A DNA stretch of 64,000 bases from Zootoca vivipara (taxonomy: Eukaryota), in contig NC_083283.1 in assembly GCF_963506605.1 (NCBI RefSeq), positions 39,742,001 to 39,806,000 of the forward strand, in the 5' to 3' direction. Both the position numbers and the translations under genes were made by a program. The stretch's first letter is position 1. Every line of letters starts with the position of its first letter. Under the pieces are notes generated by a model. The model saw only the letters and a program-made list of their open reading frames with translations, did no database searches and was not told the origin of the DNA. Positions 6,222 through 61,385 of the stretch are shown piece by piece.

Positions 6222-6300
6222 ATGCCACGATCCTTCTTGGTCAAGAAACATTTCAACTCTTCCAAAAAGCCGAACTATGGTGAACTGGATACTCACACAG
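6222..6300 (+). CDS. SNAI2: Snail family transcriptional repressor 2 (Slug), coding exon 1 (SNAG domain)
   Basis: ATG at 6222 gives MPRSFLVKKHFNSSKKPNYGELDTHT, the SNAG motif; 79 nt followed by donor GTAATC at 6301 (phase 1). Confidence 0.97.
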
Positions 6301-6881: not shown

Positions 6882-7427
6882 TGATCATTTCCCCATACCT
6901 TTATGAGAGCTACCCCATGCCTATCATTCCACAGCCTGAGATCCTGAGCTCAGTTGCTTACAACCCCATCACAGTGTGGACTACAACTGGGCTGCTGCCT
7001 TCCCCTTTACCCAGTGACCTCTCACCTCTCTCCGGATACCCTTCATCTTTGGGAAGAGTCAGCCCACCTCCACATTCTGACACTTCATCTAAGGATCACA
7101 GTGGCTCGGAGAGTCCCATTAGTGATGAAGAAGAGAGGATCCAGTCCAAACTTTCCGACCCTCATGCAACTGAAGCAGAGAAATTTCAGTGCAGCTTATG
7201 CAATAAGACCTATTCAACTTTCTCTGGACTGGCGAAACATAAGCAGTTGCACTGTGATGCCCAGTCTAGGAAATCTTTCAGCTGTAAATACTGTGACAAG
7301 GAATATGTGAGCCTAGGGGCTCTTAAGATGCACATCAGGACCCACACACTACCTTGTGTCTGCAAGATCTGTGGAAAGGCTTTCTCTAGACCATGGTTAC
7401 TTCAAGGACACATCAGAACACATACTG
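6882..7427 (+). CDS. SNAI2: SNAI2 coding exon 2 (SLUG domain and C2H2 zinc fingers 1-3)
   Basis: Polypyrimidine tract and CAG acceptor ending at 6881; encodes [11 protein letters not shown]...[28 protein letters not shown] (SLUG domain, which separates SNAI2 from SNAI1) and zinc fingers to HIRTHT; donor GTAAGA at 7428; 546 nt. Confidence 0.97.
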
Positions 7428-9003: not shown

Positions 9004-9185
9004 GAGAGAAGCCTTTTTCGTGCCCTCATTGCAACAGAGCATTTGCAGACAGGTCAAATTTGAGGGCCCACTTGCAGACCCATTCGGATGTGAAGAAATA
9101 CCAATGCAAAAACTGTTCAAAAACTTTCTCACGAATGTCTCTTCTGCACAAACATGAGGAATCTGGCTGCTGTGTAGCTCACTGA
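9004..9185 (+). CDS. SNAI2: SNAI2 coding exon 3 (zinc fingers 4-5, stop)
   Basis: Acceptor TTTCTTTCCAG ending at 9003; encodes [60 protein letters not shown]; exon sum 79+546+182=807 nt = 268 aa plus stop. Confidence 0.97.
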
Positions 9186-22200: not shown

Positions 22201-22622
22201 CAGTGTTGCAATCCACAGGGAGGCCTTAACCTCTGAAACCTGCTGACTTAAGAATAATTGGCCAGCATGATTCCACTGTGACCAACAAGTGGAACAAATA
22301 AAATTACCCACTATTTCAGTACTGTGATTGTTCTGTCTCACTGCATGACTCCATGAGTCTCTTAGAGGAATTGACCTGCTTATAATAAACAAATTGTTTT
22401 CTGGGCTCCATTTCCAGTGCCTGTAGGGTAACTACCAAAAGACAGTACCAGTCTGTGTTGACTATATTTGTGTTTCTAGTGGTAGGCCAAATCTTAAGAT
22501 GAAGCATAAAGTTGTTCAGTCTTCGGAGCTCAGATTTGCAACATCTTATGAAAAACTGTAAGCAAAACCTTTACTAAACCACGGCTTCAATTATAGAAAT
22601 TTGAACTAGCTAGTGAATAGTT

Positions 22623-22847
22623 ACAGGTAGGTAGCCGTGTTGGTCTGAGTTGAAGCAAAATAAAAAAAATTCCTTCATTAGCACCTTAAAGACCAACTAA
22701 GTTTTTATTTTGGTATGAACTTTTGTGTGCATGCACACTTCGTCAGATACACTGATGTATCTGAAGAAGTGTGCGTGCACACGAAAGCTCATACCAAAAT
22801 AAAAACTTAGTTGGTCTTTAAGGTGCTAATGAAGGAATTTTTTTATT
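22623..22847. mobile_element. Penelope-like element remnant (inverted pseudo-LTR pair)
   Basis: ~92-bp inverted repeat (22657-22750 / 22757-22848) with reptile Penelope-type sequence (GTAGCCGTGTTGGTCTG, AGCACCTTAAAGACCAAC) and hammerhead core; 16-bp direct repeat TAGCTAGTGAATAGTT at 22607-22622 and 22848-22863. Confidence 0.8.
22757..22794 (+). ncRNA. Minimal type I hammerhead ribozyme (Penelope-associated)
   Basis: Stem I GTAT/ATAC; core CTGAAGA; extra A; stem II GTGTGC-GT-GCACAC; GAAA; palindromic AGCT stem III; predicted cleavage after C22790. Confidence 0.75.
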
Positions 22848-22996
22848 TAGCTAGTGAATAGTTGTTAAAAAACCACTGGGACTTGAACCAGATGCCTTTG
22901 GATCTGCAATCAGCTGGCCATGCAGTGGGCTAGAGGTTCATGAGCAGAAGCTTCCCTGGTTACTGATACATAGTTATAGCTATCCGCTGCTTATAC

Positions 22997-23128
22997 CAGG
23001 AATGGGAAACATTTGGCCTACCAGATGTTGCTGAACTACAACTCCCACCAGCCCCAGAAAGCAAAGGCAATGACCAGCGATTATGGTAGTTGTAGCTCAC
23101 CTGGAGGACCAAAGGTTTCTCACACCTG
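22997..23128. mobile_element. Older copy of the palindromic hAT-type MITE
   Basis: CAGGAATGGGAAAC...GTTTCTCACACCTG with internal CCAGATGTT / ACTACAACTCCC; 8-bp TSD GCTTATAC. Confidence 0.8.
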
Positions 23129-42929: not shown

Positions 42930-43103
42930 AGGGAGCATAGGCCTTACACCAAATCAAATCAGTTCATGAAGTTCAGGATTGTCTGCATTACTGGCAGTGG
43001 CTCTCCAGGACTTCCCAAGCCCTACCTGGAGACGGCAGAAATTGAATCTGGGACCTTCTGCAAGCAAAGCAGATGCTCTGCCATTGAGCCGTGGCCCTTC
43101 CCC
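42930..43103 (-). mobile_element. tRNA-derived SINE, degenerate
   Basis: Reverse-complement similarity to 2549-2720 (TGGGACCTTCTGCAAGCAAAGCAGATGCTCTGCCATTGAGC). Confidence 0.6.
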
Positions 43104-57026: not shown

Positions 57027-57088
57027 CGAAATTCAAAGCTCACGCGCCTAGTTTGGTTTGAGTCTGTCAGGATTTTCCTGTGAGGAAA

Positions 57089-60000
57089 ATGACTCACGTA
57101 AGAAAACCCAGAGAGGCAAAAGGAGATGAAAGAACGGAAGGGGCTGAGGGAAGCCCAGGTTCTGAGGTAGAACTGATGAAACTACGAATTGAGATGGCCC
57201 GAATTGAAGCTGAGAGGGAAAAGATAGCATCTGAAAGTGAGAGGGAAAAAGCTAGAATTGAAGCTGAGGAGAGAATGCAGTCCGAGAGGTTAAGGGTTCA
57301 ATTAGAACAGGACAGAATGAAGCTTGAAGAGATACGTTTGAGATCAGAATTAACTCGGAGTCCAGTTAACAATGATAGTATCGCAATTAATTTAAAAAGG
57401 TTCCCCAAATTTGGAAAAGACGATAATGTCGAATCGTTTCTATTTACCTTTGAACGCGTTTGTGTGGAATTTCAAATACCTGAGGAGAACTGGATGCTTT
57501 ATTTAAGACCTCAAATTTGTGGGATACTAAGTGAAATTTATGCTGACCTGAGGGAAGAAGAGCTGTCAAGTTACCAAGTATTTAAGCAAAGAGTCAGGGT
57601 TCGATGTGGACTCACAGCTGAACAAAGCAGAAAGGCTTTTCGTGAGGCAAAAAAGGAACATAAAGAGACTTATGCCCAACTAGCTAGCCGCTTAGATAAA
57701 TTACTTGACAGATGGATTCAAGGGAGTGGAGTGAAGGACTTTGATGAGTTAAAACAATTAATTTGTTTAGAACAATTTTTTAAGCAAATCCCTAGCAATT
57801 TACGTTGGTTCTTGAGGGATAAAAAACTGAAAACTGTGGCAGGGGTTGCCGAGGTCTTAGACGAACTACAAGGAGATTTCAATGAAATAGCATTCCCAAA
57901 ACACTCACAGAAGGGTAATCCATGGAGAAACAGAGAAAATAAAGACAGGCAAGAAAATTTTCCTGTCAGGGAATCAGTTTCTGACAAGACAGGTTCTAAG
58001 AAAATCACTTGTTTTTTCTGTAATCGTGAGGGCCATGTACGTGCCAGGTGCCCCCTGCTGGTTAAGTCGCAAACTACACCTACTGCAGCTAAACAAGTAA
58101 AACTGGTAATGCAGTCACAGGAAAATAGCTCGCCTCAGACAGAAGGCTCAGAGAAAGCAGACAGTTCAGCTGAGACTACTTCTAAGGTCTTACAGGTCTG
58201 GAGGGCTGAGCAGGAGTGCAACCAAGATTACATGGAGCCAATTGAATTAAATGGTCAGTCTTTTTTAGGTTTGAGGGACACAGGAGCAGAAGTCTCACTT
58301 GTTAAATCCCAATTTGTTCCAAAGGAGCAGTACCTCAAGGGTCAGTCCTATAGTTTAAAAGGCATATGGGGCCCACATTTTGAAGTACCATTAGCTGAAG
58401 TTGATATTACCTACAAAGGATTTTGTGGCAAGTGGAGAGTAGGAATCCTAAATGAATTGGAGGTACCCTTTTTAATAGGGAATGACCTAGCTAGTCAGAA
58501 GCACCGTATTCAAGTGATAACTAGGTCACAGTCTCAAGTCACTGAGAGTAATCCTCCTGCAGTTATAGAGTCACCCATAGAGCCTGGTGAGGATGAAGGG
58601 CTGATTAGCGTGCCAGTGGTCCAGGAGCACGGTGCCCAATTCTTGAGTGATCAAAAAGAGGATGAAACTATAAAAGAGCTGTGGGGTAAAGCACAAAGTC
58701 CTACTGCAGAAGTAACTGTGGAGAACCCCTGCTTATTTACCACCATTGAGGGAAGACTGTATAGAATTTCTAGGAGGAGGAAAACTGCTGCTGTTTGGGA
58801 AAGGAAGAAACAGTTAGTGTTGCCAAGAGCTTACCGGTGGCAAGTGCTACAAATGGCACACGACGCACCCTCAGCAGCGCATCTAGGCATTAGAAAAACT
58901 AGTGATAGAATCCAAGCAAGATTTTACTGGCCTGGGATGGGCAAGGACATCAAAGAGTATTGCAAGTCCTGTGTGATCTGCCAAAAAGCAGGCAAAAGAG
59001 CGGACAAAACGCGAGGCTTGTTACAGTCTATTCCCGTAATTACTGAGCCCTTTTCCAGAGTAGGAGTGGACATCCTCGGGCCTATCTCCAGAGTTACAAA
59101 AAGGGGGAATAAGTTTATTTTATGCCTCGTAGATTATGCTACGCGCTATCCAGAAGCAATACCTCTAAAGGACATTGATTCCAAGACTGTAGCAAAAGCC
59201 CTCATGTCGGTATTCTTAAGGCTGGGATTCCCCAAAGAAATTATAACAGATTTAGGGACATCCTTCACGTCCAAGACCATGGAAGAGCTTTTAACTCTTT
59301 GTGGGATTAAGCATGTTAAAACGACGGCTTATCATCCACAGTCGAATGGCTTGACGGAGAAATTTAATTCGACCCTGAGCCGGATGCTAAAAACCTATTC
59401 CATCAATCATCCTAACGACTGGGATGAGAGGCTGCAACACTTCCTATTTGGTTATCGCGAAGTGCCGCAGGAGAGCACAGGGTTCAGTCCTTTTGAACTC
59501 CTATTTGGACGACAGCCACGAGGACCCCTAGACTTGATGAAAGCAGCGTGGTCGGGGGAGGAGCAGATCGACAGCCCTGATGTTGTGACGTATCTACAGG
59601 AGCTGCAGAGCGACCTTCAAGAGCTACGGGAGCAAGCTGCTCACAACTTGCAGCAGGCACAGCGTCGACAGAAGCAGTGGTATGATGCACACGCAAGAGA
59701 CAGAACTTTCCAGCCTGGTGACAGTGTGCTCGTGTTAAGAACAAGACGTCGAAAGAAGTTGGAGATGTCGTGGGACGGTCCCTTCAAAGTGGTCGAGAGG
59801 ATATCGGCGGTGAACTATTTGGTAGAGTTAGATGGGGAAGGGAACCGATGTAAGAATTTTCATGTAAATTTACTTAAGCCTTATTTTGACAGAAATAAGT
59901 TGGTGTTGCAAGTAAAGGGGAAGGTGACACAAGGAATTCATTTAACTGGGTGGGGAGAACTAAGTAAGGGCACAACTCTAGCAGAGGTGTCATTCGATGA

Positions 60001-61385
60001 AAGTCTGACCCCAGAGCAAAAGGAGCAGTTAAAATTAGTCCTTGCTCAGTTTGCTCAGATCTTCTCAAACATCCCAGGGAGGACCAGCCTAGCAACTCAT
60101 AAAATAGATACGGGGGAAGCAAGACCCATAGCTACCCCTCCTTACAGAGTGACGGGGGAGCACGCCGACTTGGTCTCTTCAGAGATCAGGGAGATGCTTG
60201 CACTGGGATTGATTGAGCCCTCTTACAGCCCCTGGTCATCGCCCCTGCTCTTGGTCAGGAAGCCAGACAATACCTTTCGTCCCTGTGTAGACTTCAGAAA
60301 GTTGAACCAGGTGACCGTGCCGGACGTTTACCCCATGCCACGGGTGGACGACTTGGTTGAGACCATAGGAAAAGCGAATTATATATCTACACTTGACTTA
60401 ACAAAAGGGTACTGGCAAGTGGAAATGGATCCCTTAGACAAGCCCAAAACCGCTTTCATCACTAGAGATGGGTTGTTTGAATTTAAAGTGTTGCCTTTTG
60501 GATTAAAGAACGCGGCAGCCACGTTCCAGCGACTCATCGATAGGATGCTAAGGGGTCTGCAAACGTTCGCCCTTGCTTACATTGACGACATAGCGGTATT
60601 TAGCCCATCGTGGAGAGATCACTTACAACACCTAAGTGTGGTTTTCCAGAGGATAAAAGCGGCAGGTTTAACAGTAAAAGCGGCTAAGTGTCAGATGGGG
60701 AAAAGACAGGTTAAATACTTAGGCCATGTTCTCGGAGGGGGAGTGATCAGGCCAGATACTAACAAAGTGGAAGCCATCAGAAGCTGGCCGGCTCCCAAAA
60801 CTAAGAAGCAGGTGCGTGCCTTTATAGGAGCTATAGGTTATTATAGGCGTTTTATCCCCCAGTTCAGCACTCACGCGGCTGTGTTGAGTGACTGCACGAA
60901 GAAAAGCCGCCCGGATAAGATTATCTGGACCACACAGTGTCAACAAGCTTTTGAACTTTTAAAGGCTGCTCTGATGACAGAGCCCATTTTAAAAGCACCT
61001 GATTTCTTTTGCCCTTTTAATTTAATGACGGACGCATCAGGTGTTGGTTTAGGTGCAGTACTGGCACAGGAGGGAGAAGGAGGTTTTTTTACACCCAGTG
61101 TTATATATCAGCCGGAAGCTGTTAGAGAGGGAAAAGCACCTCTCTACCATAGAACTCGAATGCCTAGCGATTTTGTGGTCCGTAGGTAAACTGAAGCCTT
61201 ACCTGTGGGGCCGAAAGTTTACCCTATATACCGATCACTCACCACTGAAATGGTTAAACCAAATGAAGGGTAACAACAGTAAGTTAGTCAGGTGGAGCAT
61301 GCAGTTACAGGATTACACTTTTGATGTCAAACACATAAGTGGGAAGGAAAACATCATAGCGGACGCCTTATCCAGGTATTTTTGA
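57089..61385 (+). CDS. Gag-Pol polyprotein: coiled coil, SCAN-like capsid, CCHC, protease, integrase, RT, RNase H; one +1 frameshift at 61084-61090
   Basis: ATG 57089; CFFCNREGHVRARC (~58010); LRDTGA (~58277); HHCC and D-D-E integrase (~58850-59400) with GPF/SH3-like tail; RT LDLTKGYWQ...YIDD (~60578); RNase H TDASG, continuing in another frame (HPVLYISRKL...ELECLA...TDH...ADALSR) to TGA at 61385. Confidence 0.92.

Follow-up and report, generated by a model that had tools for sequence, protein, structure and literature searches.

Predicted catalytic silence of a Penelope-like hammerhead motif in a 225-bp mirror-image stub of the Zootoca vivipara genome

Results

The window analysed here is a 64,000-nt stretch of the Zootoca vivipara genome (NC_083283.1, positions 39,742,001 to 39,806,000), and all window coordinates below refer to it. 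The gene next to the motif encodes 268 aa, which we take to be SNAI2 because of its five zinc fingers and its SLUG-type segment; the best PDB match of exon 2 is SNAI1. The hammerhead motif is part of a 225-bp insertion at 22623-22847, made of Penelope-like element (PLE) ends joined head to head, and sits in its right arm. As the earlier note had stated, it lies 13.6 kb downstream of SNAI2 on the same strand, the stop codon preceding it by 13,572 bp. The features are as follows.

6222-6300, 6882-7427 and 9004-9185, + strand: the three coding exons of SNAI2 (268 aa), a neighbour only
22607-22622, no strand: target-site duplication, left copy, 16 bp (12-16 bp), a flanking direct repeat
22623-22662, - strand: one-sided PLE tail of 36-40 nt, the stretch that separates the two common 3' end positions of the copies
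22663-22751, - strand: left arm, antisense pLTR (the PLE end repeat), together with the tail 92.6% identical to the full-length parent L078
22713-22750, - strand: second hammerhead copy, broken (GAAA changed to AAAA with loss of G12, AGCU changed to AGUU)
22752-22755, no strand: head-to-head arm junction, a site that takes 27 forms in 30 similar copies
22756-22847, + strand: right arm, sense pLTR, 97.8% identical to L078
22757-22794, + strand: minimal type I hammerhead motif with intact core, predicted cut 3' of 22790
22848-22863, no strand: target-site duplication, right copy, a flanking direct repeat

Elsewhere in the window, a 1,375-codon frame at 57062-61186 (+) carries Pfam SCAN, protease, integrase, RT and RNase H matches with the integrase before the RT, and presumably belongs to a Gmr1-type gypsy retrotransposon. 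A weak Rfam tRNA match (34.1 bits) at 43027-43096 (-) may be the head of a SINE.

In the letters of the + strand, the motif has stem I at 22757-60 and 22791-94, the core CUGAAGA at 22761-67 and an extra A at 22768. Stem II pairs 22769-74 with 22777-82, and GAAA (22783-86) and GCU (22787-89) lead to C17 at 22790, after which the cut is predicted. Helix II carries the G10.1-C11.1 pair, the AGCU is palindromic, and position 22775 in loop II holds one change that the other copies lack. The letters had been read correctly before, including all core nucleotides, the extra A after A9, the 4-bp helix I and the palindromic AGCU; the 6-bp stem II with a 2-nt loop is replaced in the ViennaRNA fold by 5 bp and a 4-nt loop. 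A hammerhead search had been proposed earlier as a check. A loose hammerhead pattern has its sole match at 22757-22794, with no second intact hammerhead on either strand of the 64-kb window and no match in 100 dinucleotide shuffles of it. An Rfam search of the locus returned no hammerhead family at E<=10 or at gathering scores. The stability of the isolated 38-mer was discarded as support for a ribozyme, as it is no better than chance (z = -0.21 against shuffles). Rfam microRNA matches at the stub were also discarded; all score below the gathering threshold and are due to the hairpin alone.

The inverted repeat and the broken minus-strand hammerhead copy had escaped the earlier note. The repeat pairs 22663-22751 with 22756-22844 at 85 of 89 bp around a 4-nt centre. 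The hairpin energy is -75.8 kcal/mol, with z = -15.6 for the fold of 22700-22810. In the left-arm hammerhead, the stem III palindrome is disrupted and G12 is lost. The right arm ends 57 nt past the predicted cut. The arms also differ at core position 7 (C on the left, A on the right), and the same pattern recurs in copies L008 and L024. The flanking duplication is counted as 12-16 bp because up to 4 of its 16 letters also match the element ends. An inverted 5'-truncated pLTR, a one-sided tail (a concept taken from PMC11167929 and PMC8557442) and a target-site duplication, which together characterise insertions of EN+ PLEs, are all found at the stub.

The profile of the copies comes from a search of the animal's own genome (1.44 Gb, 48 contigs), in which 40 of 3,174 candidates were scored and 29 copies besides that of the window were fetched. 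Flanking repeats of 11-15 bp accompany 21 of these 29 best other copies. The 3' ends are bimodal. One class lies 55-62 nt past the cut (14 of 30) and the other 93-103 nt past it (12 of 30), and the window stub has one end of each. Longer copies extend upstream into the GIY-YIG coding region. Since the 30 copies have 27 different centre junctions, they were built one by one. This bears on a different reading, that of a non-autonomous family of MITE- or retrozyme-like type in which the whole 225-bp hairpin would be the unit of copying. Genome-wide, 1,665 head-to-head pairs of intact cores lie with at most 30 nt between them and many copies are of near-equal length, as such a family would have it. 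However, apart from the diversity of junctions, four copies that do share a junction differ in subfamily variants, arm lengths reach more than 1 kb and enter the ORF, and the window locus has no tandem units, which makes copying as a unit very improbable.

Rare variants are often common to both arms (17 shared and 44 private, in 29 copies). Position 7, at which the arms of L001, L008 and L024 differ (C vs A), is a subfamily site; one possible reading of this arm difference is two RNA templates per insertion.

A full-length parent, L078, was found as 3,030-bp tandem units that are 100% identical (G000:C2:103027500-103037400). Its ORF of 901 aa has Pfam RVT_1 and GIY-YIG matches above the cut-off, and each unit carries one hammerhead, in the pLTR, with 103 nt from the cut to the ATG. 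The link to PLEs drawn earlier is right: the motif is a PLE-like hammerhead of minimal type I, and this parent is present in the genome. The 901-aa ORF is intact in two L078 units. With many more 925-codon open frames listed besides, the family looks recently active. The 901-residue protein of L078 has a CX4CxxC linker at residue 761, ahead of the nuclease, with EN from 799. According to PMC8557442, a CX2-5CxxC linker between RT and EN occurs in Neptune and Nematis and is absent from Penelope and Poseidon. The L078 element therefore appears to be Neptune-type by its protein sequence, the choice of Neptune over Nematis coming from the vertebrate host; assignment to the Penelope/Poseidon clade fails on the presence of the linker. 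Another candidate for the full-length parent, L057/L061, was rejected as a short partial tandem, and an ORF that begins within the hammerhead, like that of the anole element, was rejected by the position of the ATG.

The intact-core pattern has 23,086 matches genome-wide, one per 62 kb, and its reversed control has 1. Among 84 ungapped copies at loci picked by a tail word, the core is intact in 70. The stems show no compensatory pairs among the 84, copies too alike for covariation to be seen. Apart from CpG decay at G12 (7/84), variation in the core is highest at the free position 7 (14/84). A separate array, L191 (G000:C1:2775720-2779900), repeats the element 3' end and its first bases with a 598-bp period. 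Each unit carries an intact hammerhead (four among the matches listed), and this retrozyme-like tandem could form dimers in cis.

For the places where arms stop, we used a tail word outside the hammerhead (15,816 matches genome-wide) and took the arms lying within the first 4.5 Mb of contig C1, giving 91 arms at 90 loci. Four arms (L114, L131, L189 and L206) were dropped as self-matches or discontinuous alignments. Of the remaining 87, 33 stop in the 5' half of the hammerhead, beginning at most 12 nt from core C3. The arm-end rate in this zone is 0.019 per nt, against ~0.002 at +34..+97 and -50..-499, so that arms stop near C3 about 10 times as often as further up- or downstream. The adjoining bins reach 0.006-0.009 per nt, and the excess has a binomial p of 3e-10 against the higher flanking rate, for arm ends accurate to a few nt in a sample from one genome region. 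Only 1 of the 87 arms begins near the cut.

Reading through the cut was measured in words that start directly past it (n = 14,899). Of these, 13,832 (92.8%) continue 7 nt upstream, and in the control 14,305 (96.0%) continue 7 nt downstream. Therefore, cut RNA is rarely the template, unless it is re-joined. Both the word counts and the arm sample reject the cut site as the 5' end of the copies.

Even a perfect ribozyme core is uninformative before the sequence around it has been folded. In + strand read-through RNA of the window locus, the antisense arm is transcribed first. ViennaRNA pairs the core with the left arm at a mean probability of 0.84 from 22770 on. The hammerhead fold lies above the ensemble by 48.8 kcal/mol here and by 3.1-4.9 kcal/mol where the motif sits in the parent. 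The motif is therefore predicted to be catalytically silent, its core trapped by the antisense arm. An RNA that starts inside the junction would lack this arm, and its hammerhead fold is computed at only 4-6 kcal/mol above the ensemble; at the window stub there is no pointer to such an RNA. In the assays of PMC4209133, a monomeric minimal hammerhead showed no cleavage and dimers cleaved at a low level.

The RNA data come from three runs of one study under the same species label, of which ~6% each was used. Ribozyme ends are poorly represented in ordinary libraries. Within this scope, the unique flanks of the stub have zero depth in all three runs, and at 22790/22791, where the earlier note had suggested looking for RNA ends, no pile-up was seen in any of them, nor did many molecule ends gather at any other place. 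Matched reads number 3,219, 1,591 and 1,003 per run, and 96-97% of them continue into different sequence. The left junction of the stub is present in run X2. A repeat just right of the stub, at 22978-23119, collects RNA reads from other copies.

The earlier note had gone further, proposing that read-through or enhancer transcripts of SNAI2 could be cleaved here, so that the hammerhead would affect the gene. The core is intact and on the strand of SNAI2, and the hammerhead of the anole PLE cleaves when protein is added (PMC11167929). But the predicted hairpin traps the motif, the window offers no cis-dimer partner to a monomer of the kind found inactive in PMC4209133, and four AATAAA signals stand between the SNAI2 stop and 12,600. 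In 3/3 runs the flanks have no reads and no ends pile up at the cut. About 10% of genes are expected to have a core at most 13.6 kb downstream on their own strand; with an intact core every 62 kb, the position near SNAI2 is unremarkable. An effect on SNAI2 is extremely unlikely, and the motif is likely an ordinary passenger without a role there. What stands of the earlier interpretation is the minimal hammerhead of PLE type; the cleavable SNAI2 RNA finds no support.

The same hairpin invites the suggestion that the stub, if transcribed, matters as long dsRNA, a substrate for editing or small RNAs, and not as a ribozyme. The hairpin is very stable (-75.8 kcal/mol, z = -15.6), and other copies of the family are present in RNA at the read counts given above. 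However, no RNA from the window locus was seen in the three runs and the Rfam microRNA matches stay below the gathering score, and we regard a role as dsRNA as improbable.

Discussion

We conclude, with a probability of roughly 0.92, that the window holds a PLE end-repeat hammerhead within a 225-bp mirror-image stub, likely the product of a single insertion, and that this hammerhead is predicted to be catalytically silent. The arms, the tail, the target-site duplication, the identity to a parent with RT and GIY-YIG domains and the number of copies can be read directly from the DNA. For the steps of insertion at the stub, we draw on the analogy with the anole PLE biochemistry in PMC11167929. 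There, the protein of the PLE cuts into AT-rich sites by nicking and extending each of the two strands, reverse transcription begins at two internal sites whose spacing equals the tail, mainly uncut RNA serves as template, and the hammerhead cleaves only with protein added. By this analogy, the element protein would make two nicks in an AT-rich site, one per strand and 12-16 bp from each other, and each nick would prime cDNA from uncut element RNA. The cDNAs would start at either of two internal sites, ~57 and ~95 nt past the ribozyme cut, and the use of a different site by each would leave the one-sided tail. Both cDNAs would halt just beyond the hammerhead and then be joined head to head. 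RNA crossing the resulting locus would form a hairpin of 89 bp in which the core is hidden.

Two points speak against a simple transfer of this scheme. The steps in PMC11167929 come from an element of the Poseidon clade, whereas the parent here is of the Neptune type, and one RNA template does not explain the position-7 difference of the arms without a later change. In addition, PMC3846280, which reports this head-to-head arrangement too, puts forward an alternative route to it, self-priming on an antisense template.

Known minimal type I PLE hammerheads share with the window motif a short helix I, a long helix II, an extra nucleotide between 9 and 10.1, the G10.1-C11.1 pair, a palindromic 15.2-16.2 and a site in the pLTR. 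They are mostly single truncated copies, with opposite-strand pairs and reptile examples among them. The window motif differs in a helix II of 5-6 bp, against 7-8 bp in the Schistosoma set. Its family consists of very uniform copies, as of a young family, unlike the known sets, and the 23,086 intact cores compare with ~9,000 in Xenopus. As in the EN+ PLE insertions described in PMC8557442 and PMC3846280, the pLTRs are inverted head to head, a 30-40-nt tail lies at one end, the target site is duplicated and the parent occurs as partial tandems; different from those insertions, both window arms are too short for any ORF. The Poseidon element PAc of the green anole, as reported in PMC11167929, likewise has two RT start sites, an AT-rich target and mainly uncut RNA, and that report gives no RNA reads ending at the cut. 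Poseidon lacks the CX2-5CxxC linker present in the L078 parent, and the ATG of PAc lies 26 nt before the cut, compared with 103 nt after it in L078. Animal non-LTR retrozymes (bioRxiv 10.64898/2026.07.22.740005) also carry a type I hammerhead from a PLE end. As described in that preprint, they are tandem units, at least two, with a full hammerhead in each, while the window locus is a single inverted pair.

The clustering of arm ends, together with a share of at least 92.8% of copies made from uncut or re-joined RNA, leads us to suggest, tentatively and with more doubt than confidence, that in the active PLE family the hammerhead fold acts as a stop and turning point for reverse transcription and not as scissors. 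A TATA/Inr-like stretch, of a kind known from PMC3846280, lies ~7 nt before the core. A sharp run-off at such a start as the sole cause of short arms is not favoured, as the ends spread over 25 nt and 14 of them fall inside the hammerhead. Pausing or joining at stem II, which is palindromic, would account for the broad end zone better than run-off from a single start. Among the papers that our search covered, none reports 5' ends clustering at the hammerhead. If the hammerhead is such a stop, the mass of mirror-image stubs would be explained, and PLE hammerheads would have a role without cleavage.

By itself the window locus matters little, as one of ~23,000 intact cores and a likely silent one. 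The PLE family is more useful than the single copy, with many tandem units that are intact and identical. The ends of its copies record PLE insertion, and by counting them the purpose of PLE hammerheads becomes approachable.
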